Shown one piece after another: positions 13,974-32,899 of a stretch of 64,000 nt of DNA. How positions within the stretch are numbered: the first letter of the stretch is position 1; each line of letters starts with the position of its first letter. The DNA is taken from the NCBI GenBank assembly GCA_002344785.1, contig DDUL01000006.1, positions 2,534-66,533 on the forward strand, read 5' to 3'. Source of the DNA: Bdellovibrionaceae bacterium UBA2339. GTDB lineage: Bacteria > Bdellovibrionota > Bdellovibrionia > Bdellovibrionales > JAMPXM01. Below the pieces are notes generated by a model. The model did not search any database. It was not told the origin of the DNA and was given only the letters and a program-made list of their open reading frames with translations. The position numbers and the translations under genes were made by a program.

Positions 13974-14048
13974 GGGCGCGTAACTCAGCGGTAGAGTACC
14001 ACCTTCACACGGTGGGAGTCAGAGGTTCAAGTCCTCTCGCGCCCACCA
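13974..14048 (+). tRNA. tRNA-Val (anticodon CAC)
   Basis: Folded by hand into a cloverleaf. Acceptor GGGCGCG/CGCGCCC, D stem ACTC/GAGT, anticodon stem CCACC/GGTGG with loop TTCACAC. The variable loop is 5 nt, the T arm is AGAGG-TTCAAGT-CCTCT, the discriminator is A, and CCA is encoded. Confidence 0.93.
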
Positions 14049-14093
14049 AGTTTCTCCTTGATCGACTTGCCACCAAAACTTGCCCGCCAAAAC

Positions 14094-14969
14094 CTACGAA
14101 GACTTTTCTGAACTCATCCAACGATGGATCCAGGATGATGTGAATTCCGTAGTCAGCGGCAAGAGCGCCACCGCATAGGCCCAGAAGAAGTTGATTTCCA
14201 AAAACCACCAGACGCTGGCATGAAATCCGAGCGCGAGAATCGCCGCCACTGGCCGAGCCCTACGCGACCAAAGCGCCCAGCCGACACTCACTTCAAAGAG
14301 CAAAATCCCGCTCGCCGCCAACATCCAAATTGGCGACTCCCAGCTGCTTTCACGAAGCCACAAATTGATGGCCGACTCAGCTCGTGGAGTCAGTCGGTGG
14401 AACTCCTGAAATGCCACCCACAGACGTTCACCATCAACCCAGTCGGCGCCGTACACGCGAAGCTTCTCTACGGCCGCCAAAAAGTAAGTCAGCCCTGTGA
14501 TTCCAGAAATGCACTGTAGCAGGGAGGCCGAATGTTCTTCGGCTCTCGACCATAGTGTTGCAACCCCAAGCACGAGAAGTGGCAGCACATGCACATGCGA
14601 ATGATAGCCGTGAATGGGGTGATAGGAGATCGAAGCCCAAAGTCCCGCCAACAAGGTGACGGCGATCAGGGCCATGAGCATCCAAAGCTGGCGTCGGACT
14701 TGATCGATCAGCGCGGCGCTCAAAAGAAAAAATGCAAGCGCGTGCAAACCCGCGCCTTGCCCCTCAGCCACCCAAGTCCATCCTAGACTTCGCAAGAATG
14801 GATTCACGCGCTCCATCGAGGGCGGCGCCCCCGTCGTCACCAAAACAATGAGCCAAGCACCAAGAACCCAAACCCGAGGATCTTGAAGCTCGGCCATCAG
14901 CTTCGATCGGAAGACGGAAAAAAATCCTGGCGGCGACGCGGATGCCGATGCCGACTGCAAAGGCGTCAT
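14094..14969 (-). CDS. polytopic membrane protein (weakly HTTM/DoxX-like)
   Basis: Start at ATG 14969 (MTPLQSAS...), forming an ATGA overlap with the upstream gene's stop. About 8 hydrophobic helices. The segment LTYFLAAVEKLRVYGADWVDGERLW resembles the HTTM-type Y..aG..Kl....W..G pattern, but only weakly. The longer ORF-track start (15338) is rejected. Confidence 0.55.
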   Translation of the reverse strand: MTPLQSASASASPPGFFSVFRSKLMAELQDPRVWVLGAWLIVLVTTGAPPSMERVNPFLRSLGWTWVAEGQGAGLHALAFFLLSAALIDQVRRQLWMLMALIAVTLLAGLWASISYHPIHGYHSHVHVLPLLVLGVATLWSRAEEHSASLLQCISGITGLTYFLAAVEKLRVYGADWVDGERLWVAFQEFHRLTPRAESAINLWLRESSWESPIWMLAASGILLFEVSVGWALWSRRARPVAAILALGFHASVWWFLEINFFWAYAVALLPLTTEFTSSWIHRWMSSEKSS

Positions 14970-16207
14970 GGCAACTCCTCCTCGCGAAGCAAAATCGTCT
15001 CCGTCGGAGTCACGCGATAAAGTCGGTAAGCCTTCGCCCACTGGCCGGAGGTCTCTCGTTGCCAGCGACGCATTTGCAGAATCAAACTTCGAAGCGCCAC
15101 ATCGTCGCGCTTTTCCCACATCGACGCCAGCACCGGCAGCAAAGTTCGCGGCGCCTCCCGACGGGCCGCCAAAGCATGGCCCTCGGCATCGATGAACTCG
15201 ACGCGATAGAGGCCGATGTTCTCTGAGTCGCGACGATCCGCAAACATCGTGTAACGCACCAGCGGCCAATTGGAGCGCTCTCGCCAAGCCGGCACCAGCA
15301 ACACCGCGAGCGCTCCGACGGCGACGACGCCTCGCCAAGGGCGGCTTCGCAATACTCCGTCGAAGATTTCACAAACACGCTCGCGCCAGCGCTCGACCAC
15401 AAACCAGCCCAGTGGCGAAAAGCTAGCGACCAGCATCAACGCCACAAACTGCGAATAGGCGAACTCTTGCCACCGGAAAAGTACATTCAACGCGCCGAGG
15501 ACGAACCCCTGAACGAGCTGTCGAGCCCGCGCCTCAGGAGCCGTGCGCGGATCTGTGAACATCAAGACCATGTAGAGCAGACCTTCCGTGCCGAACTCAG
15601 GTAAGAACAGCCGCTTCCATTCTGCATCGGGGCTGAGGCTTGCCAGAATCCAACTCATTACGGCCGAGGCGACAAGATACGCTCCGGTCGCGTGAAAACG
15701 CCGAACTCGCCACAATGCCAAGCCGCCGAACACGAGCACAACAAGGCTTGCGATCAATGATCCGTTAAATTGATCACCGCGCACAAACACATCATCGGGA
15801 AAAATGGCGATACTCAGTAAGATCGCAAGACCCGTGGGATTGTAGATGTGCTGATTCTTTGAATTGCGAATCAAGTGCTTGCCGAAAATCGCGAGGCCTC
15901 CCGCAAAGGCGTAGAACCAGGGCAAACGTGAACTGAGAATGATCAAGAGTCCGAGGGCGATGATGAGGGCTGACTTGATTCGATCAAGATTGAAACTCCA
16001 AGTCTGCCGCCAAGCGCGATTCCAGATCAGCTCCAAGATCACGACAGTCAGAATGCAACTTGTGATTTGCACGGGCCCGCGAAGCATCAAACTCAGTGTT
16101 AAGCCAATGCCCAACAGCAAAGTGTGATTGATCAACACAAAGTGCCGCGGATCAATTCCCCGTAGCAATTCTAGGCCACGTATCACTCGGACTTGAAGCG
16201 CACTCAT
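14966..16207 (-). CDS. RnfD/NqrB-like polytopic membrane protein with extra C-terminal TM plus soluble domain
   Basis: 413 aa. [30 protein letters not shown] parallels RnfD [41 protein letters not shown] parallels RnfD/NqrB GAFF(I/M)(L/A)TDPVT. No SGAT-type flavinylation loop is seen. There are ATGA overlaps with both flanking genes. Confidence 0.6.
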   Translation of the reverse strand: [413 protein letters not shown]

Positions 16208-18003
16208 CGTGAACTCCCCGTGCCTTCTTGAATTCTGTGATACGCATTGTGATGAGTCAGCTGAAAGACTTCACGAACACCCTTGCGCCATTGCACCTCA
16301 ACTTCAAATGGCCCTTTGGCGTCACCAAGTCCAAAATGCAAACGCGGATCGGACTGAGAGTTGAAGGTGTTGGTCGGATAAGCCAGTGCAACACGCTTCC
16401 ACCCGTCGGCGCCGCGAAGCTCGACAAGACTTCCCCAAGTGGCAGGACGCCCCGCCCGATTGCGAAGCTCGACGCCGAGCCAATCTCCCACCTGCTGAGT
16501 TTGGTTCACATACAACATGACGGGTGCGGCACGATTGACGACCACTAAGTCCATCCGCCCATCGTGATTGAAATCAAGCGAGGCAACACCGTAACCATCT
16601 TCAAGATCTGTTACGCCTGAGGCGCGCGCATGATCCTCAAAGCGTCCGCCATCCTGCTGAACGAACAAACAGCTCGCTTGGAAGCTTGAGAGTTGGCGTC
16701 TCGCCGTGGACGGATAATCAATGCTCGGATCCAAGGCGCGCAAAAATGCCGGGATGTCGGTGGCCATCGCGCGCGCATGCCAGAGTGAGCCCGCCTGAGC
16801 TTCAGTCGCACCACGACCGCGAAAGCGGCCATTCACCACAAACAAATCCAAACGCGAATCATTATCGAAGTCGGCCCAGCGTCCCGACCACGTCCACCCG
16901 CAGTTTCCCGTTCCTGTAGAGCGCGAAGCATCGAAGAACCCGCCCTCAGAAGATCGAGTCCACAGCACATTGTTATAGGCCATAAACGGAGGCGCAGAGA
17001 TGTTGCCAACGTACAAATCCAACAATCCATCGCCGTTCCAATCGCCGACATCCGTATTCATGCCGTTGAGGCCATGAAAACGCCTTGGGATGTACTGATC
17101 CGTCACGTCGATGAAGCCCTCTGGGCGATTCAACACCAAACGATCAAACTGATAATCATTGGCTTGATAGAAATCCAGTCGCCCGTCCGCATCGACATCA
17201 AAGAGACTAAAGTTGTTGGCGTAGCTACGAGGCAGATGAGCGATGCTGCGATGTGCTTCCGCGGCGGCTCGAAACTTTCCCGTGCCATCCCCCCACAAGA
17301 TCTGACTCTGTCCTCCCGTCTGTGAAAGCCAAGTCGATCGAAGACGCGGAGTTCGTGGAATTTTCTCCCGCAAATCATCTTCGAACCAATAATTCGCAAG
17401 CATCACGTCCAGGTGGGAATCGCCATCCAAATCGCCGACGTTCAGTCCAACCGCATTGGAGCACACGCCGCCAAATGCGTCGGGAATTTCAGCAAACTGC
17501 GGTGGACCAGCTCGCTGAACTTGCACGAACACTTGATGGCATCCATAGCGCGACATCAGCAGATCAGCTCGTCCATCGCCATTGACATCCGCCGCGATCA
17601 CTCGGGAAACCATGTCACCGGCGCTGAGCCGCCAAGCTCGCGTCACATCTTGCCAGCGTCCGCTGCGTGAACCTTGAAAGATCCGCACTCCAACTTCTTG
17701 ATCGGGACTTGTGAGCACCAGATCTAACTCACCGTCCCCATCTAAATCCGCGACAGCGACGGAAGGATAAATCGCATTGAACTCGAGCACGGCCCGAGGT
17801 GCGTGAGGATTCGGAAAAGCCAGTTGGTGAGTGAAGTGCAATCCGCTTGGCGCCGCCATCTCGGCGAAACTCAAATGTGAAACTTGAGCCGGTCTTCGCG
17901 GACCACCTCCGCCCGGCACATCACGAAGCGCTTCGCGCCCCCAAAGAGTGGCAATGAGACTCAAACCCACGAGCGCCGGTAAGAAGATATCGCGTATTGC
18001 CAC
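16204..18003 (-). CDS. CRTAC1-family protein (FG-GAP/VCBS repeats plus ASPIC/UnbV domain), secreted or anchored
   Basis: 599 aa with an N-terminal signal or anchor. At least six D-x-D/N-x-D-G repeats (ADVNGDGRADLLM, GDLDGDSHLDVMLAN, FDVDADGRLDFYQAN, GDWNGDGLLDLYVGN, ADFDNDSRLDLFVVN, LDFNHDGRMDLVVVN). The C-terminal WLGVELR...GSLVELR...NSQSDPRLHFGLG matches an UnbV_ASPIC pattern. GTG start. Confidence 0.85.
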   Translation of the reverse strand: MAIRDIFLPALVGLSLIATLWGREALRDVPGGGGPRRPAQVSHLSFAEMAAPSGLHFTHQLAFPNPHAPRAVLEFNAIYPSVAVADLDGDGELDLVLTSPDQEVGVRIFQGSRSGRWQDVTRAWRLSAGDMVSRVIAADVNGDGRADLLMSRYGCHQVFVQVQRAGPPQFAEIPDAFGGVCSNAVGLNVGDLDGDSHLDVMLANYWFEDDLREKIPRTPRLRSTWLSQTGGQSQILWGDGTGKFRAAAEAHRSIAHLPRSYANNFSLFDVDADGRLDFYQANDYQFDRLVLNRPEGFIDVTDQYIPRRFHGLNGMNTDVGDWNGDGLLDLYVGNISAPPFMAYNNVLWTRSSEGGFFDASRSTGTGNCGWTWSGRWADFDNDSRLDLFVVNGRFRGRGATEAQAGSLWHARAMATDIPAFLRALDPSIDYPSTARRQLSSFQASCLFVQQDGGRFEDHARASGVTDLEDGYGVASLDFNHDGRMDLVVVNRAAPVMLYVNQTQQVGDWLGVELRNRAGRPATWGSLVELRGADGWKRVALAYPTNTFNSQSDPRLHFGLGDAKGPFEVEVQWRKGVREVFQLTHHNAYHRIQEGTGSSR

Positions 18004-18057
18004 GACTCCATCTCAAATCGACTTCGCAAAGTGGTCAAGTCGCAACGAAATCTAAAC

Positions 18058-21000
18058 TTAGAGTGAACCGTCCGGGCTGATCTCCCTGAGATAGAGCGCA
18101 TTCTGACCTCGATAAGTCGTGAACACTCCACCGCAGGTCAGACGCGAAGCCGACGCATTCCAACCCAATGCGTACACCGTCGAGTTAAATCCATTCGCAC
18201 CACTCGCGGGACTGAGTGTGGTGTCGAGACTTCCGTCATCCAAGCGAACTCGCGCCAGCCGGTTGGCCGCCTGTCCACGATAAGTGGTGAACTGCCCGCC
18301 CACGTAGAGATGCGTGCTATCCAAATCCAGCGTCCAGGCCGTCGCGGCCACGCCATTGCCTCCGCTCGCAGGATTGAAAACGAGATCGACACTACCATCA
18401 GAGCGATGAATCTTCGCCACGCGATTCGCCGTAACACCTCGGTAAGTCGTGAAGGCACCGGCCAAATACAACCAGTCACCCGAGCGGCGAATGGCATACA
18501 CGATGCCGTTGGCCCCTGTGGTGACGGAGTGGAAAGTCGCGTCCAGAACTCCGCTCGTCGAATTCACTTTTGCCAGACGAGTCACAGCCGTGCCGCGATA
18601 GTTTCCGAAACTTCCACCGATGTAAAGATCAGCACCATCGAGCCAGAGCGAGTAGACAATGTTGTTCGTGCCATTGCCGCCACTTGCCGGATTGAAACTT
18701 GTATCCAGGACACCTGTCTGCGCATGAACTTTGGCGACACGATTGGCCGTCGCGCTTCTGTAACTGGTGAAATTCCCGCCCACATAGAGGGTCAGGCCGT
18801 CGGCACTCAGCTGCAAGGCCCGAACTTCTCCACTCGTTCCATTGCCTCCGCTCGATGGGTTGAACGTCGTATCAAGCGCCCCTGTACTCAAACTGACTTT
18901 GGCCACGCGATTCGCTACTGACCCACGGTAACTCGTGAACGCGCCTCCTAAGTACACCGCGTCTCCTGAAGCCGAGAGAGCGTAGACGGTGTTATTGGTT
19001 CCATTCGCTCCCGACTGGGGAGAGAAAGTCGTGTCGACGGATCCGTCGGCGGCTAAGCGCGCGATGTTTCGCGCCGTGATCTCAGGTGGACCCGCTGTAA
19101 ACGGGCCACCCACAAAGATCTCGTCGTCCGAGGCCACGCGACTCAAATCCATCGCGTACACCGCATTGTTCACCAAGGTGGCCCCGCTTGCGGGCGAGAT
19201 GTTGAGATCCGCATCGCCCGTCGCCGTGTCGATTCGCGCCAGGTAGCTGGCTGCGGCTCCACGATAGGCGACGAAAGTTCCGCCAATCCAAAGCGAACTT
19301 CCCTCTAAGCCCATAGCGTAAACTCCGCCTGAACTCAGACCGTTGCCTCCGGTCGCGGGATTGAAAGTCGCATCGACGGAGAAGTCCGCGCGTGAGATCT
19401 TCGTCAATCGATTGACCGTGGTGCCTCGATAAGTCGTGAAATCCCCGCCCACAAATAAATGCGTGGCATTGATGGCGAGCGATCGAACGTTATTGTTCAC
19501 GCCATTTCCGCCCGTGCCAGGATTGAAGCTGGTGTCCAATGCACCCGTGATCCCGTCAATCTTCGCCAAGCGATTCGCCACCAAAGTTCGATAGGCGGTG
19601 AAGCTTCCACCGATGTAGACATCACGGCCATCCAACGCAATCGCCAAAACCGTGTTGGCCGCGCCATTGTCACCGCTCTGCGGGCTAATCGTCTGATCAA
19701 GAGCGCCTGTGTCTCGGTGCACTTTGGCGACTCGATTGGCAATCAGACCATGATAGGCCGTAAACGCTCCGCCGAGCCAAATCGAGGTTCCGTCCATAGC
19801 CAAAGTGTTGACTGTACCACCGGCACCATTTGCACCTGTTTGCGGTGAGAACGTGGCATCAATTTGGCCCGTCGCCAGACTAATCTTGGTCACTCGATTG
19901 GCGATCGCACCACGATATCTTGTGAAGGCACCGCCCAACCAAACGCTATCGCCATCGACGAGGATCGCGTTGACGGTGTTATTCGTTCCGTTGGCGAGAT
20001 ATTGCGAATTGAAACTCAAGTTCAAGGACCCATCGGCATTGATCAGCGCGATCCGGTTCGCAATGAGACCTCGGTAGGTTGTAAACGCCCCACCCACTAA
20101 GACTTGTCCACTGCTCAATCTGACAACGGCATTCACCGTGCCGTTGAATCCGCTGCTATACCCGGACTCTATGCGCGACCCATCACTGGGTTTGATTTTC
20201 GCGATATAGCGTGTGGTGTAGCGACTAAAGCCGCTAAACGATCCACCTACCAATTTGCCGCCGTCTGTAAGGTTCAAGACCGACCACACTGTGCCGTGCG
20301 CGAATTGATCCAGCAACAGATCGTAACTCACTTGCGCCGTGATCGTACCAAACAAACCGTCATCCATAGAGAGTTCAACTTCGCGCGTGCCATTCGCGCC
20401 AAAGCTGGTCGCCGCAAATCGATAGGTGCCGTTGGGTTCGCAAACGATCGCCGTCGGACCGCCCACATCACCGGTGTAACTGATGTTGATCAATCTCCCA
20501 GCCTCACATGCGCCAATGATGGGCTGATCAATTTCGGTCGTCACTAAACCATTGGCCGGCGATGTGATCGTCAAAGTCGGCGCCGCAATGTCCACAAGCC
20601 ATCCGGTCGCATGCGGAACCACCACAGTGTTGCCTGCGAAGTCTCGGACTCGCATATGCAAATAGTAAGTTGCGCCAATGCTAAGACTCAAACCCGTTAC
20701 CTGAAAGGGGGACGAGCCCGCTTCGGTCCATGTCACCACATCCGATTGCGCCGCACCTGATGTGCCGGTACCGATCGCGTACTCATAAGTGTCGACACCA
20801 CTTTCATCGTCGACTGCATCCGCATTGAATGTGACCCAAGGTGAGGCCGTCGTCGAATTGTAAGTCGCCGGGTAGCTTGCGCCAACAGTCCAAGTCGGAG
20901 CCAACGTGTCGTGCCAAATGTCGTCCGACACGCAAGCCGACTCATTTAGAGCTGCGTTCCTAAACTTCACATAGACTTCATTGAGCGAATTCGTCGAAGG

Positions 21001-23592
21001 CAAGGTCCACGCACGCGAAGTTGCATAAGCCTGCCAAGTTCCGCCGCCGCCACAACCCGCGGTGTTGGTCACATACATCTGCGTGGCACCGGACGCCGCA
21101 AGTGTGAGCGTGACGGAAGTGCTCGTCACCGCCTCAGCTCCCGCGGCAATCGAAAGACTCACGCTCGTCGGCACGGCCGTGTCCTTCACGAAACTTCGCG
21201 ACGCGCTTCCCACGTTGCCGACTAAGTCCGTTTGCGAAGCGGTGAGCGAAACCGTGCCATCTGCAACGCCGGAGAGATCCAGTACAACACTATAGCTTCC
21301 CGAACTACAGGTCGTCGTCGCGCTGATGGCGCCGCTGATCGCGACACTGCTGCCCGATTCACTGCATGTTCCGGCCAAAGTAAATGCCGAGGCCAATGCA
21401 ACGTTGATCGTACTGCCCGCGGCCGGCGAAGCGATGGAGAGCGTGGGGGCAACCGTGTCCTTGGTGAATGCGCGCGTTGTGGAACTTGAATTGCCAGCAT
21501 CATCCGTCTGCGAAAGCGTTAAACTCACGTTGCCATCGGCGACACTCGTAAGATCCAAAGTCGAGCTCATCGTGCCGCCAATGCAAAGCGCCGAGGTCGA
21601 GAGCGCACCTGAGACACTCACGCTCAGACCAGCTTCGCAACTGGCCTCGACGGCAAATGCCGCCGCCTCGCTCGCGTCCATGGCGGTTCCCGCCAGCGGT
21701 GAAGTCCAAGCCAACGAAGGCGCGAGCGTGTCTTTCGAGTAAGTGCGGGACACACTCGTTGAGTTCCCAGCGGCATCCGCATGCGCAACGTTCACCGTCA
21801 CGCTGCCATCCGCTGATCCTGACAAATCAAGATTGGCCGACCAAGCCCCGCTCATGCAGGTGACACTGCCCGAGGCCGCGCCCGAGAAGCTCACATCACG
21901 ACCGTTTTCCGAACAGCTTCCGCTCATGATCCAGTTCGATGCATTGGCGGAATTGATCCAAGCGCTCGCTAAGGGTGCCGCGATCGAGAGTGTCGGCGCG
22001 CTGACATCCTTGTTGAAGCTGCGACTCGCACTGCCGCTATTCCCTGCAACATCCGACTGCGTGAAGTTCAACGTCACATTGCCATCGCTCACCGAGGTGA
22101 GATTCAGATCCACCGACCAAGTTCCCGAATTACAAGTCGTCGACGAAGTCACCGCACCCGTCACACTCACGCTGCGCCCGGACTCCGAGCAGGTGCCACT
22201 GACAGTGAAAGCCGCCACGTTCGATGGCGTGATCCAAGATCCAGAGGCTGGCGAACCCACCGCCAACGTCGGCAGCACGGTGTCCTTTGTGAAATTGCGA
22301 CTGACGGGATCTGCCGCTCCACCCGATGCATAGCTGTGATTCACAGTCAGTGAAATCAGGCCGTCGCTCACGCCACTGAGGTTCAGAGAACTCGACCACT
22401 GCCCTGATGAACAAGTCGCTGAAGCCGACACGGCACCCGAGATCAACACCGGCTGACCTTCGGCACCACAATCACCGCCGACCGTCCACGCGGTGGCATT
22501 GGTCGCGTTCACGTAAGTTCCGGCTGAAGGCAAAGTGAACGTCAGCACAGGCTGAGCTTGATGAACAAAATTTCGTGTCGCCGTCGCCGACGAGTTCCCC
22601 GCCGCATCCTGCTGAATCGCCGAAATGCTCACGCTGCCGTTCGGTGCTGAACTAAAATCCAAATTCAACGACCAGCTTCCGCTTGAGCAAGTCGCCGTTC
22701 CCGCCGCGTCGCCTGTGATCACCACAGTTCCATCTTCCGAACACGTGCCACCGACCGCAAAAGCCGCGTGCTGAGTTTGGTCGATCACAGTTCCTGCGGC
22801 TGGCGAAGTGATCGCCACCGTCGGCGCGACCGTATCCTTTTGCAGTTCGCGCGTGATCACACTCGCGGCATTCCCCGCCGCATCGACATGACGAAACTCC
22901 AAATTCACCGCGCCGTCCGTCGCCGACGAAACATCGACAGCCCAAGTGAAACTTCCCGAGTTGCAAGGCACTGAGCTTGATCCCTGCGGACCTACCACAC
23001 TGACGTAGCGTCCGCTTTCGCTACAAGTTCCACTCACCGCCAAGGCCGTCGCATTTCCCGAGTTCACCCAAGACGATTGCACCGGCGTGCTGACACTCAA
23101 CGTGGGCGCGATGTTGTCGTGAGTGATGTTCACCGACAGACAATCTGAAGTCGGTCCACCAAAGCCACCGTTGCGAAACTGCGCGTAGAGGGTGTTCACC
23201 GCGTTGGCTTGCGTGAGCGTGTACTCAAAGGGCGATCGAATTTGTTGCCAAAGCCCCCCGCGCGTACATCCAGGGATCGTGGTCACGTACATCTCGGTCA
23301 TGTTGGCACCGGTGATTTGCACCAGCACGTTCAAACTCTGCGTGTAGTAAACACCTTGCTCGAGTTTGCCGTTTTCAAGTTTGACGTTGGCGCGAAACGG
23401 AGCGGGCAAGGCCGGACCGTCTTGAGGCGCTTCTTCCTCTTGGTAACAGCCGGTCAAAGAAGCCAAGAAAAGCAGGCCGAGCCAAAGGGCGCGCGCGTGA
23501 AGAGAAAATAATGGGCAAATTGGGCGGCGGATGGCGCAAGCCAAAGCCTGGGAAGCTGTCGTGAAATCGAAAAACGGACCGCGTGACGACAT
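18058..23592 (-). CDS. giant surface lipoprotein/adhesin: Ig-like repeat array plus FN3-like module plus delta-60-repeat beta-propeller region
   Basis: 1844-aa uninterrupted ORF with lipobox LASLTG|C at aa 43-49. Seven tandem modules of about 92 aa have a conserved pattern (SP..G.W.N..N...F.VSGTCSE.G..V.V.GA......C.SG.WS..L.LS...DG.V.......D.AGN......R.F.KDT.AP). About 14 C-terminal units of about 52 aa match the delta-60 repeat pattern (G.NG.V.A......(L/V)(Y/W).GG.FT.YRG..ANR.AK......G.LD..F.P). Confidence 0.85.
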   Translation of the reverse strand: MSSRGPFFDFTTASQALACAIRRPICPLFSLHARALWLGLLFLASLTGCYQEEEAPQDGPALPAPFRANVKLENGKLEQGVYYTQSLNVLVQITGANMTEMYVTTIPGCTRGGLWQQIRSPFEYTLTQANAVNTLYAQFRNGGFGGPTSDCLSVNITHDNIAPTLSVSTPVQSSWVNSGNATALAVSGTCSESGRYVSVVGPQGSSSVPCNSGSFTWAVDVSSATDGAVNLEFRHVDAAGNAASVITRELQKDTVAPTVAITSPAAGTVIDQTQHAAFAVGGTCSEDGTVVITGDAAGTATCSSGSWSLNLDFSSAPNGSVSISAIQQDAAGNSSATATRNFVHQAQPVLTFTLPSAGTYVNATNATAWTVGGDCGAEGQPVLISGAVSASATCSSGQWSSSLNLSGVSDGLISLTVNHSYASGGAADPVSRNFTKDTVLPTLAVGSPASGSWITPSNVAAFTVSGTCSESGRSVSVTGAVTSSTTCNSGTWSVDLNLTSVSDGNVTLNFTQSDVAGNSGSASRSFNKDVSAPTLSIAAPLASAWINSANASNWIMSGSCSENGRDVSFSGAASGSVTCMSGAWSANLDLSGSADGSVTVNVAHADAAGNSTSVSRTYSKDTLAPSLAWTSPLAGTAMDASEAAAFAVEASCEAGLSVSVSGALSTSALCIGGTMSSTLDLTSVADGNVSLTLSQTDDAGNSSSTTRAFTKDTVAPTLSIASPAAGSTINVALASAFTLAGTCSESGSSVAISGAISATTTCSSGSYSVVLDLSGVADGTVSLTASQTDLVGNVGSASRSFVKDTAVPTSVSLSIAAGAEAVTSTSVTLTLAASGATQMYVTNTAGCGGGGTWQAYATSRAWTLPSTNSLNEVYVKFRNAALNESACVSDDIWHDTLAPTWTVGASYPATYNSTTASPWVTFNADAVDDESGVDTYEYAIGTGTSGAAQSDVVTWTEAGSSPFQVTGLSLSIGATYYLHMRVRDFAGNTVVVPHATGWLVDIAAPTLTITSPANGLVTTEIDQPIIGACEAGRLINISYTGDVGGPTAIVCEPNGTYRFAATSFGANGTREVELSMDDGLFGTITAQVSYDLLLDQFAHGTVWSVLNLTDGGKLVGGSFSGFSRYTTRYIAKIKPSDGSRIESGYSSGFNGTVNAVVRLSSGQVLVGGAFTTYRGLIANRIALINADGSLNLSFNSQYLANGTNNTVNAILVDGDSVWLGGAFTRYRGAIANRVTKISLATGQIDATFSPQTGANGAGGTVNTLAMDGTSIWLGGAFTAYHGLIANRVAKVHRDTGALDQTISPQSGDNGAANTVLAIALDGRDVYIGGSFTAYRTLVANRLAKIDGITGALDTSFNPGTGGNGVNNNVRSLAINATHLFVGGDFTTYRGTTVNRLTKISRADFSVDATFNPATGGNGLSSGGVYAMGLEGSSLWIGGTFVAYRGAAASYLARIDTATGDADLNISPASGATLVNNAVYAMDLSRVASDDEIFVGGPFTAGPPEITARNIARLAADGSVDTTFSPQSGANGTNNTVYALSASGDAVYLGGAFTSYRGSVANRVAKVSLSTGALDTTFNPSSGGNGTSGEVRALQLSADGLTLYVGGNFTSYRSATANRVAKVHAQTGVLDTSFNPASGGNGTNNIVYSLWLDGADLYIGGSFGNYRGTAVTRLAKVNSTSGVLDATFHSVTTGANGIVYAIRRSGDWLYLAGAFTTYRGVTANRVAKIHRSDGSVDLVFNPASGGNGVAATAWTLDLDSTHLYVGGQFTTYRGQAANRLARVRLDDGSLDTTLSPASGANGFNSTVYALGWNASASRLTCGGVFTTYRGQNALYLREISPDGSL
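18061..20295 (-). repeat. intragenic tandem array: about 14 delta-60-type repeats of about 156 bp (aa about 1100-1844)
   Basis: Recurring GGxFTxYRGxxANR(V/L)AK(I/V)...G(A/V)LDxxFNPxxGGNG in the translated ORF. Confidence 0.8.
21175..23115 (-). repeat. intragenic tandem array: 7 Ig-like modules of about 276 bp (aa about 160-806 of the adhesin)
   Basis: Periodic recurrence of KDT(V/L)APT(L/V)...SGTCSE...DGxV...AGN in the translated ORF. The array is flanked on both sides by a related module of about 78 aa (..MYVT....GC..GG.WQ... at aa about 84-160 and about 822-900). Confidence 0.8.
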
Positions 23593-24226: not shown

Positions 24227-25345
24227 CTAGGGTTTTCGGGCCACGCAAAGCTTCGCAAAGAATCCCGTGCCCGACTCAGAGTCCTGCACTTCAAAGCCTG
24301 CCTCGGCGACAAGCTTCGCCAATGGTTCAGCCAAGTAGCTCTTGTAGAATGGCTCGTGATACTGGATCGGAAATTCGTCGAGCGCTTGTTGAAGTTCGGG
24401 CCGATCTCCCGTTTGCAAGCTATCGACGATGGCTAAGACGCCTCCGCTTCGCAATACGCGATAGGCTTCAGACAAAACGCGACGTCGTTCCTCCAAGGGC
24501 AATTCATGAAAGAGAAAGACCGAGGCCACGGCATCGAAGCTGGCGTCGCGAAACGGAGTCGCTGCCGCATCGGCCTGCACATAATCAATCCCATCAAAGT
24601 TTTGCCAAGGCAGATCCTTCAAGTTCTGAGCAGCGACACGCAAATACGGCGAACTCAAATCCAGTGCCGTCAGCTGAGCCTGCGGCAAAGCCATGCGCAA
24701 AAAGCGCGTGCTGCGTCCCGTTCCCGCGCCAAGTTCTAGAACTCGCGTCGGCTTGGCGCGCACAAGCGGCGGCAACAGCAGTCTGCGCATGGCATCCGCC
24801 GCCCCAGCGAACAAGACCTCCACTTGGTGATCGTAAAGTTCAGCGGACTCGCGCGACAAATATCCATCGATTTGAAAATGGAAATTTCGACGATAGTACT
24901 CAGGCACATTCTCGGCCAGAGCTTGTGCTGCGGGAGAAAAGGCTTTCGATTCGCGCTGATGCTTCTGACGTCGACTCTTGAATCCGGTCCAAAACAGTTT
25001 CGGCATTCGCGCCAAGTGCGAACGCGGGCTTTCAGGAAGTAACACCTGCCACGGATAGACTTGCTCGCGAATATTTTGAAGATCCTTTTCGAGAAGCTCC
25101 ACCAGCGCTCGGCGAGCCGCGCGAAACAATTCGGGTCGATCCGTCGGTAGCGGAGGTCGCTGGCCAGATGCCAAGAATTCCACAATCGGTAAAAAGCCGC
25201 CTTCGAGGGTGAAAACCAGAGATCGGCCATGCGCCCATGCACGAAGCGCTTGTCCCCAGCCTGCCTGCAAATTTTCACGAAGTTGAGGCGTCGCCTCGCC
25301 GCTCAGCCACTTTCGAGCCCGCGCCTGTGTTTCCACTTTTGGCAT
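24227..25345 (-). CDS. class I SAM-dependent methyltransferase
   Basis: 372 aa. SAM motif I VLELGAGTGRSTRFL, post-I LDLS, and motif LRSGGVLAIVD. The N-terminal roughly 190 aa is helical with YYRRNFHFQIDGYLS. Confidence 0.85.
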   Translation of the reverse strand: MPKVETQARARKWLSGEATPQLRENLQAGWGQALRAWAHGRSLVFTLEGGFLPIVEFLASGQRPPLPTDRPELFRAARRALVELLEKDLQNIREQVYPWQVLLPESPRSHLARMPKLFWTGFKSRRQKHQRESKAFSPAAQALAENVPEYYRRNFHFQIDGYLSRESAELYDHQVEVLFAGAADAMRRLLLPPLVRAKPTRVLELGAGTGRSTRFLRMALPQAQLTALDLSSPYLRVAAQNLKDLPWQNFDGIDYVQADAAATPFRDASFDAVASVFLFHELPLEERRRVLSEAYRVLRSGGVLAIVDSLQTGDRPELQQALDEFPIQYHEPFYKSYLAEPLAKLVAEAGFEVQDSESGTGFFAKLCVARKP

Positions 25346-27188: not shown

Positions 27189-28493
27189 TCACTGAGAAGC
27201 CGGAGCGCGCGCCGCCTCAGACTTCGCAGCCTTCTTTTGAGGCGAGGCTTGCCTTTGCGCCTTCGGTGCAGCGGGAGACTTCATCTGGATGGCCTCGACC
27301 GTCTCGCCTTGCGGACCAAACCAGACATCGACGACCTGCACGGACTTACCCTTGACGATCGCCGTACTTCGCTCGCGAAGTTCGGCGCGCGCGGCAACCG
27401 GAGTCACGATGTTCTTTTCATACTTCAATGAAATTTCCGTCAGCCCCTCGTCGGCCAAACTCTTAAGCTCTCCCGGATCTGAAACGCCGTTGGCGTTCGC
27501 GTCGCGCCAGAGCAGAAGCTTGCCGTAATTTTTGTCCTTCGAACTGATCTTTCTGTCTTTGTTGGAATCCAGCTTCGCCAGCGCATCAAAGCCATTGGCG
27601 ATCTTTCGCGACTCGTCCTCACCAAACAGCTCGTCTTTCTCCGAAATTTTGCCATCACCGTTTCGATCCATCGCCAAGATGGCCCAGTTTCCTGCCTCAG
27701 GCCAGTAGATGCTGCCTTTGGTGGGGCTCAAAGGAAAGCGGCTCACGGAAGTGAACTGCGGTCGCTCGTCGCCAAAGAAAACCATGATCGGCGAGAAGTA
27801 TCCGCCACAGAAACCGGTTTGCCCGGGGAAGGCCGAGCGAATTTCAAGTGAAGAGTGATCCGAGCTCAAAGCCCAAGTGGTTGACGACGACAACGGGCCT
27901 GTGTTGGCCATGTAAGTGCCGCCACTCACTCCTTCTTGAAAGAACGAAATCGAGCGAACTGGATGCGCCTGCGCCTTGATGGTCACTTCACCTTTTTCGG
28001 AAAGCGATTCTGTCACGCGAATACCGTCAGGGATCACCATGCTGATCACATTTCCCGCACGCGTGGCCCGAAGACCTGAAGTGCTCAGACCCGTCGCCGT
28101 AATCGGCACGCTTTGCTCGGTGTTGTCAGCCGTTGGAACGACCAAATCACCTTTGAACTGAACTTCGACCGACGCATCTTTGTCGTCGTTGGTTTTCAGA
28201 CCAATCGTCATCTTCACATTCGCATCGGGAGAAAGTGGATTCGCCACACTTCTCAAATTAGTGCCGAAGCAAGATGCATAGAAGCGCACCTGCAACGTCT
28301 TGGTCGCGTCATAGCTTCGCGCCAAGCTGCCATTCATGACGATGTCACTCATGTTCGCCGAAGGCGCCGGAAGCACATCACCGGCCCAAGATTTTTGACT
28401 GAAGTAGAATGAGGCCAAGAGCCCGGCGCTCATCAAGAAAAAGCGGAGCCAAACCATGCCACGCGAATCGATCGCGACTTGCACTTTCGCCAT
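27189..28493 (-). CDS. secreted protein with three EF-hand-like Ca-binding loops
   Basis: Start at ATG 28493 (GGGGGA SD 5 nt upstream) with signal VWLRFFLMSAGLLASFYFSQKSWA. Loops are DRNGDGKISEKDE, DSNKDRKISSKD and DANANGVSDPGELKSLADEGLTEISL...VDVWF. The C-terminus is a Lys/Ala/Pro-rich tail. Confidence 0.7.
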   Translation of the reverse strand: MAKVQVAIDSRGMVWLRFFLMSAGLLASFYFSQKSWAGDVLPAPSANMSDIVMNGSLARSYDATKTLQVRFYASCFGTNLRSVANPLSPDANVKMTIGLKTNDDKDASVEVQFKGDLVVPTADNTEQSVPITATGLSTSGLRATRAGNVISMVIPDGIRVTESLSEKGEVTIKAQAHPVRSISFFQEGVSGGTYMANTGPLSSSTTWALSSDHSSLEIRSAFPGQTGFCGGYFSPIMVFFGDERPQFTSVSRFPLSPTKGSIYWPEAGNWAILAMDRNGDGKISEKDELFGEDESRKIANGFDALAKLDSNKDRKISSKDKNYGKLLLWRDANANGVSDPGELKSLADEGLTEISLKYEKNIVTPVAARAELRERSTAIVKGKSVQVVDVWFGPQGETVEAIQMKSPAAPKAQRQASPQKKAAKSEAARAPASQ

Positions 28494-28521
28494 ATTGTCC
28501 CCCACGTCGCTTTCCACGAGC

Positions 28522-29493
28522 CTAAGGCCGTTTTCGGAAAGTGACTTCATAAGAAAGAATAGCAAGGTTCGTCGCTCGCCGACGAATTATCAGTTGCTCA
28601 ATATCGACACCGACCACCATGGGCGATTGAAAAGCTGAATTAGTCCAAGTACTTCGCACCAATTCGTAAGTTCCTTTAACAGACGCGCGTTCGCGCAAAG
28701 TGTATCGAACTGGTACAACTTTCGTCGCCATCATCATCACCGAAGCACCGCCCACAGGAGGCGCGAGTCGTAAAAACCGATCGGGATCCTGAGCCGAGAC
28801 TTGATCAATCGGAAAACGATAATCAAACACCCCACCCAAATTATTGGCGAGCAAGGTGTTGCCATCGTGAATGCCCAACCAAGATGGCTGGCGAGGCGGA
28901 ACTGTGGGGTCTTGGGTTTTGCCGGCGGGCTTCAACCACACAGGGGCAAATAACAAAAAGGCGTCGCCCTTCACCCAATGCGACCCAAACAGATTTTTCA
29001 TATAATCCAAGTACTGAAAGCCGCGAAACTCCAACTTCCCTGAAGTTCCAAGCGCCGTGGGCGGCTGACTTAAGTACATCGCGGCCGGATCGATCATCTT
29101 AAGTGGCGCATCTGTCGGCGAAGTCAGAAACGTGACTTCCTTAATCTTGCTGGTGGGAGAAATCGTCAAAGTTCTGGTTCGCAAATTCGTCGGAATGTTG
29201 GAGATCTCCGCATCCATATACAGATCAAAGAGATCTCGCCCCTCATCGTCCTTGATCGTCAGTGCCCCAAATGAAAGTGCAGCCTGACTCAAGTCGCGCC
29301 ACAAAAACTGGTCGATCACCACACCCGTCATGCGATCTTCAAGCTTGGCCGTAATGTTGCGAACCCGCTGTGTGTTGTCCAAAAACATATACATCAGAGC
29401 CACGACCACAATGAGGCCAATTCCAGTGGTCATCACCACTTCGGTGAGCGTGACGCCTCGCCGTGACCTGATCGGCAATGCGAACTTCATCAT
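28522..29493 (-). CDS. prepilin-type N-terminal domain protein (PilW/GspJ-like minor pseudopilin)
   Basis: 323 aa. N-terminus MMKFALPIRSRRG|VTLTEVVMTTGIGLIVVVALMYMF has Gly-1, Glu+5 and a hydrophobic helix. Its start makes an ATGA overlap with the upstream gene's stop. Confidence 0.7.
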   Translation of the reverse strand: MMKFALPIRSRRGVTLTEVVMTTGIGLIVVVALMYMFLDNTQRVRNITAKLEDRMTGVVIDQFLWRDLSQAALSFGALTIKDDEGRDLFDLYMDAEISNIPTNLRTRTLTISPTSKIKEVTFLTSPTDAPLKMIDPAAMYLSQPPTALGTSGKLEFRGFQYLDYMKNLFGSHWVKGDAFLLFAPVWLKPAGKTQDPTVPPRQPSWLGIHDGNTLLANNLGGVFDYRFPIDQVSAQDPDRFLRLAPPVGGASVMMMATKVVPVRYTLRERASVKGTYELVRSTWTNSAFQSPMVVGVDIEQLIIRRRATNLAILSYEVTFRKRP

Positions 29494-29936
29494 GAACCAC
29501 CACCGATGATGTAAGTGTAGTCGCGAGCCTCTTCACCGATTGACGGATGCTTGATGCGAACTCGTAGCCGGTAAGCACCCGGCACGAGCGCGTGGGGCTG
29601 CAACACAAAGCCGAGTCGACCCGCGCAATCCGGACACTGATCGACAGGCAATACGCGATCATCATCCCAGGCCCAAGGCAGCTTTGCCGGGTCCAAGAGA
29701 TTTGAAACATGCGTTTCCGATGTGTCGAAGTTCACCTGATACGAAGGCGCGTTCTTGATGATCGTTTGCAGCACGGACTGTAGGGCCTTTTCTCGACCCC
29801 GCGTCGCATTCACTTTTGAAGCTGCACTCAGCGTGGTCTGCGCCGAGGAGATCATCACGAAAATGGCGATACCCGAAATCGCCAAGGCCATAAGAAGTTC
29901 AACCAAACTCAATCCTCTCCGCGAGCGCCAGTTCAT
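29490..29936 (-). CDS. prepilin-type N-terminal domain protein (small minor pseudopilin)
   Basis: Start at ATG 29936 (MNWRSRRG|LSLVELLMALAISGIAIFVMI, Glu+5), with an ATGA overlap to the upstream 870-aa gene. The longer ORF-track start (30089) is rejected. Confidence 0.75.
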   Translation of the reverse strand: MNWRSRRGLSLVELLMALAISGIAIFVMISSAQTTLSAASKVNATRGREKALQSVLQTIIKNAPSYQVNFDTSETHVSNLLDPAKLPWAWDDDRVLPVDQCPDCAGRLGFVLQPHALVPGAYRLRVRIKHPSIGEEARDYTYIIGGGS

Positions 29937-32548
29937 AGCACCACCTCGCTGGAGAGAAACTTGATCTTGAGCCGCTGCGGTCGGCTCTTGCACGACGTGG
30001 CCGAAGCTCCTGGCAACAATCCACAGTCCGGATCGACGGTCGACCATTGCATAGGATTGGACTTGTCGCGCAGAGAGATCGGCAAACAACGGTACTGATC
30101 CGCCAATCGACTGAGATTGGGATAGGGATGCCAGAGCGGATTGTTGATATCAATGCCCGGGCAAGCGCTCGTGGTGCCATACAAAATTCCGAGTCGGCGC
30201 AACTCATCGATCGCCGACTGATTGTGAATGGAGCTCATCGTGATCCCGTGCCGCAGAGCCGAGTCATCAATGACCGAATTGAGCGCAATAATGGTCCCGA
30301 TGATTCGAAGCGGCCGATCCCGAGGCTCGATGGTCAGCAAGTCGCAAGTGAAAAAGCCCGCGACGACCTCGGCCGAGGCTTTGATTCGACACTCCGTCAC
30401 CGTGGAGTAAATCAAGAAGTCGCGCTTCGCCACCGGCGTCGCACTGGAATTGGCCGCATCCAATTCGAGGATGCCGTCGATGGGTCGATATCGCCACGAG
30501 TGCCGACTGGCCGCCGCAAAGGAAACATCCCAGGCCACTGGCGAGAACGAGCTCACCGGCGAACTTGGCGCGCAGGCTTCGTTCAAGGCCGCGTAGTCTT
30601 CGATGACATCCAAAGTTTCCGGAGGCACAGGAAGTTTGCCATCGGTGCGGGCAAAGCTTGTGGGCACGCCGTACTCTTTTTCGATAGTTCCAAAATCATA
30701 GGCGGAGTTACTGTCTTTATAATTGAGCGTGAGTGCGTTGTTGTAGCGAGATTTCGCCGGCTCTTTGTTCAAGTCGCGATTCTGATGGCCCTTGCTGAAC
30801 CCCACATCCAAGCCCCAGACTCGAGCGCGAAATCCCGTCAGCATGTTGAACTGATTCTCAACGCTCACCCTAACATCCACTTGATGCGGCTGATCCTTCA
30901 TATTGAAGACGACTTTAAAGACTTCAATGCGGATGCGCGGCGGATCCTTCTCGGCGGCAATCGCGCGATCGCGAAGCACCTTGAGATCATTGATCTCTTT
31001 GTTGATCGCGTTGATCTGCTTTTCCAAGGCCTCAGCCTTTTTGGGATCCTTTTCGTCTTCGAGTTTGTCTTTGAGTTTGTCTCGATCCTCTTCAAGGTCA
31101 TCAATGCGCTTGATGTAAATGTCTTTGTCCAAAAACTTCGGCGTCAGCACCACCGAGCCGCCGCGCCCTAAGTCCACGCGGACTCGCGCATTCTCGGCTT
31201 TGCTGGGATCCTTGGCGTATTGCTTCACGTAATTTTCATTGAAGCTTTCGATCTCGACGGTGGTCACGTAGTCCCCGCCTTTGACGATCGTCGGCTCCTG
31301 AACATGCGCGGAGTTCCCTCCGCTCTTATGATTGTGATCCACTTTGTGAGGCGTGGTCTGCTCACTGAAGAAATTCAATTCGGTCCAACTGAGTCGGAAA
31401 GTTTCCTGCGACATGTTCGAGGACATCGACTTCCACACCAGCGAAGAGTTGTCCGTCGCCGACAAATTGCTCAGCACTTGGTTTCGCCGAATGCACATTT
31501 GCAGAAGCGACGGATCCGGATTGTAGGCCGGGATGTCGCCGATCAAGGCCTGCAGACCGCGATCGAACTCACCATCTCGCTCCACGCCCGCCAACAAACC
31601 CGAATAGCCGCGAATCGAGGCGAAGTAGTCGTCTCCGGCGCCGCCAGCGGTTTGCGTGGCAAATGGCTGATCACCTCGGCGCAAGATGCCATTTCCAAGC
31701 ACGAGTTTTTCGACAAACGTCGCCGTCGGCGTGCGAAGTTCCTTCTCGATCGGAATATGCACGTCACGATTCACATACACGGGACTTTCAAAGCGAATGC
31801 CCCGCACTTGCGAGCGCTCATAGCCGACAACGGGAAACACATGATTGCCCGGCTTCAAATCCAAGGGCACGGGGCGATCCAAGTACAAATCGCGAGGCAA
31901 AATGAGCGTAAACGCCGATAGCTCTCGTGGCATGACCGCAAACTGCGTGACCAAAGTGACCTTTCGTTCTTCGGTACTTTCCGCATCGGCGATGGTGCCT
32001 GTGACCGTCAGCCGCACATAGCCCTCGCGCCCGCGAATCGGAAGGCGCAAATCCGACGTGCGCTGCACTTTGATTTCGAGTTTTGAAAGCTTACCGGCAC
32101 CTGACTGTTGCAGCGCCGAGGCCAAAGGATGTGAAACAGGAAGCGCTGAAGGCGTCAGTACCGTTGAGAATTCATCCAGCGTCACCGGGCTTCCCAATTT
32201 CAAATCGGGATTGGCGACCTTCAATTCATTGATGTAGGCCACCTGCGGTGGCGTCAGCAAAAGTCTTTCCGTGCTGCGAGGATGATCGAGCAAGCAAATC
32301 TCATCGCGCACCCAATTGTCCGTAAAGCACCAGCGCCGCTTCATACCGGCCGCGGTGTAATTCGCGACACTTTCCAAAACCGCTCGCGACAAAATCAAGT
32401 CGCTTCCGCGCTCGGCCGTATTCTTCAACGACGTCATGGTCTGCAACATCATATTGCCCGCGAAGATCGCGACGCCGGCGATCACCACAACTATCGGCAA
32501 CACATTGGCACGTTTGGATTTCAAACTCGCACGCGCCGCCTCGGTCAT
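29933..32548 (-). CDS. large envelope protein with pilin-like N-terminal anchor (PilX_N-like) and central charged coiled coil
   Basis: The 915-codon ORF is open from TTG 32680. I place the start at ATG 32548 (MTEAARASLKSKRANVLPIVVVIAGVAIFAGNMMLQTM...), which is uncertain. It has a single N-terminal hydrophobic helix without the G-x-x-x-x-E prepilin motif. A KED-rich segment IKRIDDLEEDRDKLKDKLEDEKDPKKAEALEKQINAINKEINDLK is present. It is the first gene of the pseudopilin operon. Confidence 0.6.
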   Translation of the reverse strand: MTEAARASLKSKRANVLPIVVVIAGVAIFAGNMMLQTMTSLKNTAERGSDLILSRAVLESVANYTAAGMKRRWCFTDNWVRDEICLLDHPRSTERLLLTPPQVAYINELKVANPDLKLGSPVTLDEFSTVLTPSALPVSHPLASALQQSGAGKLSKLEIKVQRTSDLRLPIRGREGYVRLTVTGTIADAESTEERKVTLVTQFAVMPRELSAFTLILPRDLYLDRPVPLDLKPGNHVFPVVGYERSQVRGIRFESPVYVNRDVHIPIEKELRTPTATFVEKLVLGNGILRRGDQPFATQTAGGAGDDYFASIRGYSGLLAGVERDGEFDRGLQALIGDIPAYNPDPSLLQMCIRRNQVLSNLSATDNSSLVWKSMSSNMSQETFRLSWTELNFFSEQTTPHKVDHNHKSGGNSAHVQEPTIVKGGDYVTTVEIESFNENYVKQYAKDPSKAENARVRVDLGRGGSVVLTPKFLDKDIYIKRIDDLEEDRDKLKDKLEDEKDPKKAEALEKQINAINKEINDLKVLRDRAIAAEKDPPRIRIEVFKVVFNMKDQPHQVDVRVSVENQFNMLTGFRARVWGLDVGFSKGHQNRDLNKEPAKSRYNNALTLNYKDSNSAYDFGTIEKEYGVPTSFARTDGKLPVPPETLDVIEDYAALNEACAPSSPVSSFSPVAWDVSFAAASRHSWRYRPIDGILELDAANSSATPVAKRDFLIYSTVTECRIKASAEVVAGFFTCDLLTIEPRDRPLRIIGTIIALNSVIDDSALRHGITMSSIHNQSAIDELRRLGILYGTTSACPGIDINNPLWHPYPNLSRLADQYRCLPISLRDKSNPMQWSTVDPDCGLLPGASATSCKSRPQRLKIKFLSSEVVL

Positions 32549-32899
32549 CGATCGCACGAATCCGAGGAGGACCGCTGAGCGCAAACGGCGCGCTTCAGCT
32601 CGCTGCTTGACGCGTTGATAAACTGCTGAGTTCAAAGCTGCTCCCCAAATGCAAATACATGCATTCGGACCCGCCGCCAAACGAGTCCACGTTCGACCTG
32701 TCCCTCTATCCTATGCATCTCTTTGCAGGAGGAAAACCCTACGACTCAAAATAAGACTCGACCTTCGTCGCAAGAGCCATAGAGCACTCGGCGGCCCGGC
32801 CTCGGGGCCTGATGTTTGTCTCTTTCATCGCCGTGAACGCAATTCGCCGCGATTTACCTTGGCGGCTTGAAACTTTGCCCGCTAGCTTTGAATCTCAAA

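Follow-up and report, generated by a model that had tools for sequence, protein, structure and literature searches.

The described systems closest to the locus studied here are the Nqr/Rnf-like two-subunit complexes. They combine an NqrB/RnfD-like membrane domain lacking the flavinylation threonine with one membrane-anchored extracytosolic subunit. In the membrane subunit, which has a cytosolic NAD-binding domain (PF00175) at its C terminus, a non-covalent flavin site has been proposed; the extracytosolic partner is flavinylated and resembles NqrC/RnfG (Huang et al., mSystems 2024, PMC11334425, citing earlier work of that group). In Na+-NQR, the non-covalent riboflavin is held by N200, N203 and D346 of NqrB according to mutagenesis and flavin analysis (PMC9293633), and cryo-electron microscopy confirmed G198, N200, N203, A205, F342 and D346 as its ligands (PMC10643135). 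The equivalent residues N124 and D248 flank riboflavin in RnfD of C. tetanomorphum (PMC9588780). A second point of reference is the vitamin-K carboxylase GGCX, in whose 2025 structures K218 is the catalytic base and hydrogen-bonds the menaquinol ring, and A214, W223, F286 and F299 line the naphthoquinone and isoprenyl pocket (PMC12589487). The present work deals with four minus-strand genes, A to D, at 14094-23592 of a 64,000-nucleotide stretch of contig DDUL01000006.1 from Bdellovibrionaceae bacterium UBA2339 (the window, numbered from its first nucleotide). It concerns mainly the last three, which encode a CRTAC1-type propeller (B), an RnfD-like membrane protein (C) and a short HTTM-like membrane protein (D).

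From the sequences and one predicted structure, B, C and D were tentatively read as one translationally coupled operon for a cell-envelope complex, which would be a flavin/quinone module with an HTTM accessory. This reading is regarded as possible, if somewhat short of probable, and is weighed below against the alternatives.

A conserved triad of translationally coupled genes, B, C and D

The four open reading frames (ORFs) lie in a single run. Their coordinates, with the junctions between them and the gene that follows, are these:

18058-23592, minus strand: gene A, 1844 residues
16204-18003, minus strand: gene B, 599 residues, GTG start with GGAG before it
14966-16207, minus strand: gene C, 413 residues
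15350-16207, minus strand: core of gene C (residues 1-286), a minimal RnfD/NqrB-fold membrane domain
14966-15349, minus strand: C-terminal extension of gene C (residues 287-413 and stop codon), a transmembrane (TM) helix followed by an alpha/beta domain
14094-14969, minus strand: gene D, 291 residues
16204-16207, minus strand: ATGA in which the stop of B overlaps the start of C, from the ORF coordinates
14966-14969, minus strand: ATGA in which the stop of C overlaps the start of D, preceded by GAGGAGG, read in the sequence
13974-14048, plus strand: tRNA-Val(CAC) found by ARAGORN, convergent with gene D and 45 nucleotides beyond it

This layout agreed with the preliminary description of the locus, which had reported four co-directional genes in 9.5 kb, a 54-nucleotide gap between A and B, and two ATGA overlaps linking the last three genes. 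All of these were present, and the overlapping frames proved to be conserved in relatives. A start of D at TTG 15338, offered by a mechanical ORF list, was rejected. The ATG at 14969, which forms the ATGA overlap with the stop of C, was taken as the true start because GAGGAGG precedes it and because the relatives of 288-291 residues, together with HRK08468.1, agree with it. The tRNA-Val(CAC) gene is the downstream boundary of the operon. No terminator-like site or hairpin was found in the gap between A and B, and the scan for promoters and terminators did not exceed the shuffled expectation (1 promoter-like site vs 3.7; 9 terminator-like sites vs 12.2). Identical proteins are recorded at NCBI from a metagenome-assembled genome (MAG) of Pseudobdellovibrionaceae.

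Relatives that are about 90% identical keep all four genes in the order A-B-C-D. The order B-C-D with overlapping frames was found in the window, in L001-3 and in L004/L089, L086 and L087, and two truncated contigs (L005 and L088), one of them from a Bdellovibrionales MAG, fit the same pattern. The scan of the genome collection returned a single relative, on a truncated contig of a Bdellovibrionales MAG. Among the relatives, the overlaps measured 4-20 nucleotides between B and C and 4-11 nucleotides between C and D. The divergent triads belong to at least four further lineages. B and C showed identities of 30-46% in them, and D of about 19-26% (42%, 40% and 23% for B, C and D between L004/L089 and the window), and the flanking genes differ:

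L004/L089: upstream of B, a 313-residue unknown protein and a carbamoyltransferase cluster; downstream of D, a CHASE4 histidine kinase
L086: upstream of B, YacG; downstream of D, a 350-residue propeller-like protein
L087: upstream of B, a divergent fatty-acid hydroxylase; downstream of D, three unknown ORFs and then an ABC transporter

Since the order and the overlapping frames recur in divergent relatives with differing flanks, the linkage goes beyond chance, and the comparison of neighbourhoods found it to be conserved and not unique to this genome. Hence, B, C and D were shown to form a conserved, translationally coupled triad.

Additionally, the three ORFs that follow D in L087 (11932-13860; 153, 287 and 208 residues) overlap one another and have no Pfam match, and the protein that follows D in L086 (7987-9039) has a faint beta-propeller match. 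Some of these genes may be lineage-specific accessory parts or clients. Within the window, the AT skew of the plus strand is highest over D, C and B, reaching 0.247 (14001-16000) and 0.141 (16001-18000) where other parts have 0.1 or less, probably as a result of the T-rich codon usage of minus-strand membrane proteins.

Gene A encodes a giant surface protein, an adhesin with a lipobox-like LTGC, a Pfam DUF5122 match (delta-60-type propeller repeat, E 1e-44) and about seven Ig-like repeats of the Ca_tandemer type (NCBIfam matches at 1e-47). Its homologues were confined to the approximately 90%-identical loci L001 and L002, and none was found in the divergent B-C-D loci (L004/L089, L086, L087 and the truncated contigs). 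Because the divergent relatives keep only B-C-D, without the adhesin, the triad was taken as the functional unit. Gene A is a lineage-specific co-directional neighbour outside the conserved module, with which it may or may not be co-transcribed.

Gene B is named a CRTAC1 family protein at NCBI (HRK08470.1). Its sequence matched Pfam FG-GAP_3 in six stretches (1.5e-38) and UnbV_ASPIC at residues 524-588 (7.7e-12). Seven motifs of the D-x-D-x-D-G type are visible, described as seven Ca-binding FG-GAP blades, and residues 2-20 form an N-terminal hydrophobic export or anchor segment. Orthologues of B, at 40-46% identity, lie directly upstream of every C orthologue.

Gene C and its family of RnfD-like proteins

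The only Pfam domain found in C was PF03116, which passed the gathering score (43 bits against a cut-off of 27.7) over profile positions 174-285 only; the protein is thus without the PF00175 NAD-binding domain. The NCBIfam scores fell far under their cut-offs (27.8 vs 207 for RnfD and 24.5 vs 350 for NqrB). The profile of the C family matched RnfD and NqrB chains of the PDB, including both halves of RnfD chain 8ahx_D (E 1e-14). The match falls into two segments, which leave out RnfD residues 143-228. An AlphaFold2 (AF2) model built from 50 family sequences had a predicted local distance difference test score (pLDDT) of 87.4, and Foldseek ranks 1-15 for this model were all RnfD/NqrB chains (best E 2e-6, TM-score 0.64).

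The segment that C lacks holds the covalent flavin mononucleotide (FMN) of the pump subunits. The flavinylated T236 of NqrB, in a motif of the type S/T-G-A-T, sits 19 residues past a 'YP' that aligns to an 'FP' in C, inside the missing stretch, and only about 12 residues separate this 'FP' from the next helix of C. The median spacing from N-P to D-P in the family was 95 residues, against 143 in NqrB (N203 to D346), and a tetrapeptide of the type S/T-G-A-S/T was scattered sporadically over unrelated positions, in 9 of 152 sequences. Because RnfD residues 143-228 are skipped, the spacing is short and the tetrapeptides are sporadic, the covalent-FMN site must be considered absent from the family. 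These results showed that C is a pared-down RnfD/NqrB-fold protein which has lost a periplasmic loop of about 85 residues with the covalent-FMN threonine. The NCBI name of C, "RnfABCDGE type electron transport complex subunit D", is misleading, since the FMN loop, the operon context and the NCBIfam cut-offs all fail. In this context, no rnf, nqr or apbE gene was found in those parts of the window that were scanned, nor in up to 10 kb on either side of the relatives. The preliminary description had therefore been right in calling C an orphan, and wrong in likening it to a flavin-handling core as far as this implied flavin attachment.

Among 233 sequences of the family, K110, H120, N123, P124, D219, P220, T222, M216 and S79 were near-invariant. 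N123, the counterpart of NqrB N203, was kept in 231 of 233 sequences, and D219, the counterpart of D346, in 226 of 227. K110 corresponds to NqrB K191. The position of NqrB N200 is occupied by His (H120 in C) in 227 of 233 sequences, and position 215, equivalent to F342, is Phe in 153 of 227. Hence, the near-invariant residues were shown by alignment to correspond mostly to the binders of non-covalent riboflavin in NqrB and RnfD. Because the conserved residues map to these ligands, the buried riboflavin site would be retained, with an Asn-to-His change, and the periplasmic FMN lost.

The RnfD/NqrB core also resembles Amt, Rh and urea channels, and C could be a minimal ion or small-solute conduit. 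It would then be without a redox cofactor and would supply, sense or energise its periplasmic partner, with D as an unrelated accessory. Such a channel or transducer was considered unlikely. Rh, Amt and urea transporters were indeed the next Foldseek matches after the RnfD/NqrB chains, but the Rh/Amt matches were weak (E >= 0.025, TM-score about 0.33). In RnfD, the conserved Asp/Asn pair has also been put forward as the site of Na+ (PMC9588780); nevertheless, work on NqrB by mutagenesis and at high structural resolution ties these residues to riboflavin binding and not to Na+ kinetics (PMC9293633, PMC10643135). The lack of a visible redox cofactor in the partner proteins, and of any visible cytoplasmic donor, remains in favour of the conduit.

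To define the family, an exhaustive profile search was needed, since word-index homologue searches returned only 3 proteins with C, 1 with D and 3 with the D profile. The exhaustive search with the C family, run over 1.84 billion cluster representatives at E <= 1e-3, returned 1013 relatives of C, each a cluster representative. Most of them stand alone, with about 270 residues that match C residues ~15-270, and only about six of the 1013 share the full length of C. The C family is thus a large, undescribed set of stand-alone RnfD/NqrB-fold proteins.

Fusions were counted in the best 150 of the 1013 representatives. In nine of the 150, the RnfD-like domain was followed by one extra TM helix and then by a fused FG-GAP/ASPIC propeller; one further protein was fused to DUF2330 and another to TPR repeats. 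Furthermore, a metagenome scan confirmed 399 relatives, and its best 80 loci were analyzed. An FG-GAP/ASPIC gene was fused or adjacent in 7 of these 80 loci, and a DUF2330 gene was fused or immediately downstream in 41. No FMN-binding domain was found among the neighbours of the RnfD-like genes. From the adjacency and fusion data, the core unit was deduced to pair one extracytoplasmic partner with a minimal RnfD-like membrane domain. In other lineages, single polypeptides were shown to unite a B-type propeller with a C-type membrane domain, and these independent gene fusions strengthen the link between B and C.

DUF2330, rather than the propeller, was the commonest partner of the RnfD-like proteins of about 270 residues. 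It is a secreted protein of about 450-500 residues with conserved Cys motifs, including W-C-D-P-C. The loci were as follows:

L015, L019, L024, L036, L037, L044, L062, L067 and others: DUF2330-partnered RnfD-like genes
L033:169-2271: DUF2330 fusion
L047:3853-5853: DUF2330 fusion
L077:7983-10337: DUF2330 fusion

The fusions, in which a propeller is tethered to an RnfD-like domain, and the lack of an obvious catalytic partner would also suit a C whose only task is to hold B at the inner membrane or to stabilise it there, its conserved residues being purely structural. This possibility was judged quite improbable. A domain of about 10 helices whose buried K, H, N and D residues are near-invariant in more than 200 divergent sequences goes far beyond the needs of an anchor, and B has a hydrophobic N-terminal segment of its own.

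Gene D and the possible function of the triad

Beyond its core, C carries an extension that is missing from the family majority of about 270 residues and was found only in the subfamily with gene D. In the AF2 secondary structure, it consists of a basic linker, a TM helix (290-309) and a domain of about 100 residues with a beta-alpha-alpha-beta-beta order. A P-x3-Y-x-M-F motif was invariant in the alignment of 7 extensions, and neither a Pfam nor a PDB sequence match was obtained. The extension domain is placed, by analogy, in the periplasm, because in the fused forms the same extra helix leads to a propeller of the secreted type.

Gene D occurred in 4 of 4 full-length loci with the extended C, vs none of the 80 metagenome loci, all of them with non-extended C. 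The two fused RnfD-like::propeller loci that were inspected also had no HTTM neighbour, both genes standing alone. An HTTM-like protein, proposed earlier as the partner of the RnfD-like one, is therefore a feature of the extended-C subfamily and not of the family at large. This strict co-occurrence with the extension is the main evidence suggesting that D works through it.

D is named an HTTM domain-containing protein at NCBI, and its Pfam PF05090 (HTTM) score was 27.1 bits, 0.6 bit under the cut-off of 27.7. All four domain assignments of the preliminary description were reproduced by Pfam and NCBIfam, D lying just under this threshold, and neither membrane protein was reassigned to an unrelated family. 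Three of five D orthologues matched Pfam HTTM at E < 1 (best 1.3e-6), and a close relative, P0004, carries a precomputed PF05090 match. In a database of 5.8 billion sequences, the D profile reached the bona fide DCC-HTTM protein P0155 (E 8e-4). The five orthologues align over the full length, with invariant residues that include Y162, K169, D176, W177, E181, F225, E226, R239, F249 and H250.

By hhalign, with GGCX segments checked against PDB chains, D residues 153-272 aligned to residues 202-309 of human GGCX (TM5-TM8) with a probability of 73-75% and an E of about 3e-5. The catalytic-lysine motif tested in D was Y-F-x-A-x-x-x-K ... D-W. K169 (codon at 14463-14465), which is also present in P0155, fell on K218 of GGCX, and A165, W177, F249 and F262 fell on A214, W223, F286 and F299. 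D was thus shown, at the level of aligned residues, to keep the catalytic lysine and these four quinone-pocket residues of the vitamin-K carboxylase. D terminates about 19 residues past the helix aligned to GGCX TM8, which leaves it without TM9, the linker and the lumenal substrate-binding domain. A post-membrane substrate-binding domain is not universal in bacterial HTTM proteins, given that P0155 ends at the same point. No relevant PDB sequence match was obtained for D, its profile or P0155. On its sequence, D is most aptly regarded as an HTTM-family protein that is both divergent and minimal.

The place where D stops, just after the TM8-aligned helix, raises the question of whether the extension of C could be the detached TM9, linker and lumenal domain, so that C and D together would rebuild an enzyme like the vitamin-K carboxylase. 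In GGCX, the linker after TM9 ('YGYSWDMM'; Y395, S398, M401, M402) completes both substrate pockets (PMC12589487). The extension has an invariant Y-x-M-F right after its TM helix and then a beta/alpha/beta domain, and it strictly co-occurs with D. However, when the extension profile was aligned to GGCX 358-608 with hhalign, the probability was 0.1%, the extension had no Pfam or PDB sequence match, and genuine HTTM proteins such as P0155 may also end at this point. Unsupported by hhalign, Pfam and the PDB sequence search, a split enzyme is a structural possibility only and was given little credence.

Least likely of all, and by now very improbable, is the four-gene system first proposed, in which C and D would modify or anchor both secreted proteins: gene A is co-directional, 54 nucleotides upstream of B across a gap without a terminator-like site, and the A-B-C-D arrangement recurs in the approximately 90%-identical relatives, but no divergent lineage has an A homologue beside B-C-D, the two inspected fused genes stand alone, and the comparative data already disfavour it. 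What stood of that proposal was the B-C-D linkage, which the RnfD-like::propeller fusions back further; what did not stand was the adhesin, which is absent from the divergent relatives.

HTTM-type proteins such as GGCX, LMF1 and SdpB act as membrane maturation factors for secreted proteins. In the flavin/quinone module envisaged for B, C and D, the propeller B would dock on the periplasmic face of C, and C would bind a non-covalent flavin and link this periplasmic partner to the membrane quinone pool. C would be a generic membrane module that acts like the riboflavin-to-quinone half of NqrB, separated from the other parts of the pump. The complex does not amount to an Rnf/Nqr ion pump, and no cytoplasmic electron-input subunit could be identified for it. 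D would be a minimal HTTM-type enzyme without a substrate-recognition domain of its own. Because D is present only where C has gained the extra helix and the small domain, it would probably bind C by docking via this extension, and would use a quinol for the modification or maturation of B, or of a client held by B, in keeping with the role of HTTM-type proteins in general.

A bolder form of this proposal would see in B-C-D the bacterial equivalent of the vitamin K cycle, complete in itself. D would use menaquinol and O2 for a covalent modification, carboxylation or similar, of B or of a B-held client, and a riboflavin-binding C would be the membrane quinone reductase that recycles the cofactor of D in place of VKOR. 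The RnfD-like proteins of about 270 residues would then be new riboflavin-dependent, stand-alone membrane redox modules serving non-flavinylated periplasmic partners (CRTAC1-like propellers and DUF2330). Taken jointly, these steps amount to a long shot.

Several points weigh against the flavin/quinone reading of the triad. Cofactor binding by C, the interaction of B, C and D, and the modification are all predictions from sequence and one predicted structure. Conservation of the NP and DP motifs is not proof of flavin binding, because such motifs are also helix-breaking and were once proposed as a Na+ site, and N200 of NqrB is replaced by His throughout the C family. No redox cofactor or flavinylation motif was recognised in B or DUF2330, and no electron donor for C was evident. 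On the side of D, the Pfam score lies just below the gathering threshold, the N-terminal half, including the region of GGCX H160, could not be aligned to GGCX by hhalign, and the AF2 model (4 sequences, pLDDT 42) was unusable, with about 8 helices at low confidence. D may even be peripheral, because the fused forms at two loci work without an HTTM partner. Likewise, the periplasmic location of the C extension derives from the architecture of the fused forms.

With these points counted, the earlier interpretation was partly supported. It was right on the families and on the linkage, and also in suggesting that quinones or flavins might be a common theme; it was wrong on the adhesin and the flavin-attachment core. 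Its redox or quinone guess gained indirect support from the riboflavin-pocket residues of C and from the K218 equivalent and quinone pocket of D; the adhesin as a modified or anchored client had no comparative support.

These results matter beyond the locus. At least 1013 representatives have the RnfD/NqrB fold and are neither Rnf nor Nqr subunits, yet they are publicly annotated as "Rnf subunit D". They are consistently coupled to secreted partners, by adjacency or fusion, which opens a first way into the function of DUF2330 and of the CRTAC1/ASPIC proteins of bacteria. Bacterial HTTM proteins are poorly understood, and the triad offers a small HTTM system with an intact catalytic lysine, an obvious candidate client and an obvious candidate partner. 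Should C indeed bind riboflavin and quinone, it would represent the last electron-transfer step of Na+-NQR in minimal form, and would help in tracing the evolution of the Rnf and Nqr pumps.

Surroundings of the triad and comparison with known systems

Apart from this locus, the window has the genes of an ordinary core chromosome (UvrB, UvrC, RecG, GreA, CysS, GltX and CarD). About 630 nucleotides upstream of the adhesin gene lies a gene for a UbiE/COQ5-type methyltransferase, which is retained in the approximately 90%-identical relatives; it could be a coincidence that a methyltransferase of the quinone type lies so close to a module that putatively uses quinones. Other features of the window were:

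24227-25345, minus strand: this methyltransferase, S-adenosylmethionine-dependent, 372 residues, UbiE/COQ5-type match (PF01209, 50 bits) and an N-terminal extension of ~170 residues
26227-27051, 27189-28565 and 28522-29493, all minus strand: co-directional run upstream of the region, without a Pfam family; a sub-threshold EF-hand match in 27189-28565
34682-34755, minus strand: tRNA-Cys, followed by a Mg-chelatase/ComM-like gene at 34815-36605
37832-38755: tyrosine recombinase of the XerC/D type, with ORFs without Pfam matches on both sides
5381-7705, minus strand: ORF of 774 residues without a Pfam match (E <= 1e-4)
29933-32680, minus strand: ORF of 915 residues without a Pfam match at the same threshold
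32867-34207, plus strand: ORF of 446 residues, likewise without a match
46048-48795, minus strand: fusion of a CHASE2 sensor with an adenylate/guanylate cyclase domain, 915 residues

The literature searches turned up no account of the triad, the RnfD-like/propeller fusions or DUF2330, no report on an association of CRTAC1-type with RnfD-like proteins and, in the library searched, no paper pairing HTTM with RnfD or HTTM with FG-GAP. The "RnfD-like" literature that was found concerns only the Nqr/Rnf-like complexes, which are different.

Regarding GGCX and the HTTM family (PF05090), D resembles them in the TM5-TM8 alignment, in the conservation of the equivalents of K218, A214, W223, F286 and F299, and in the reach of its profile to a bacterial DCC-HTTM protein. 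It differs in having only 291 residues, without TM9, linker or lumenal propeptide-binding domains, in an N-terminal half that is not alignable and in a Pfam score 0.6 bit under the cut-off; in addition, the triad has no evident Gla-type substrate. Gene B, with the full FG-GAP-then-UnbV_ASPIC architecture, is a regular member of the CRTAC1/ASPIC family. What sets it and its orthologues apart is that they are always encoded with a minimal RnfD-like membrane domain, to which such propellers are fused elsewhere.

C is homologous to RnfD/NqrB over both halves of the membrane core, has the same predicted fold and keeps the K...N-P and T-D-P motifs with the riboflavin ligands (N203/D346 in NqrB; N124/D248 in RnfD). 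It differs from them in lacking the periplasmic loop of ~85 residues that carries the flavinylated Thr (T236 in NqrB), in the family's His for NqrB N200, in having no other rnf, nqr or apbE genes nearby and in the partners of its family, which are a CRTAC1-like propeller or DUF2330. With the Nqr/Rnf-like two-subunit complexes, C shares a membrane domain without the flavinylation Thr and the use of one extracytosolic partner. Unlike them, C has no NAD-binding domain, its partner is not an FMN-binding protein but an FG-GAP/ASPIC propeller, and one subfamily of C adds an HTTM-like protein.

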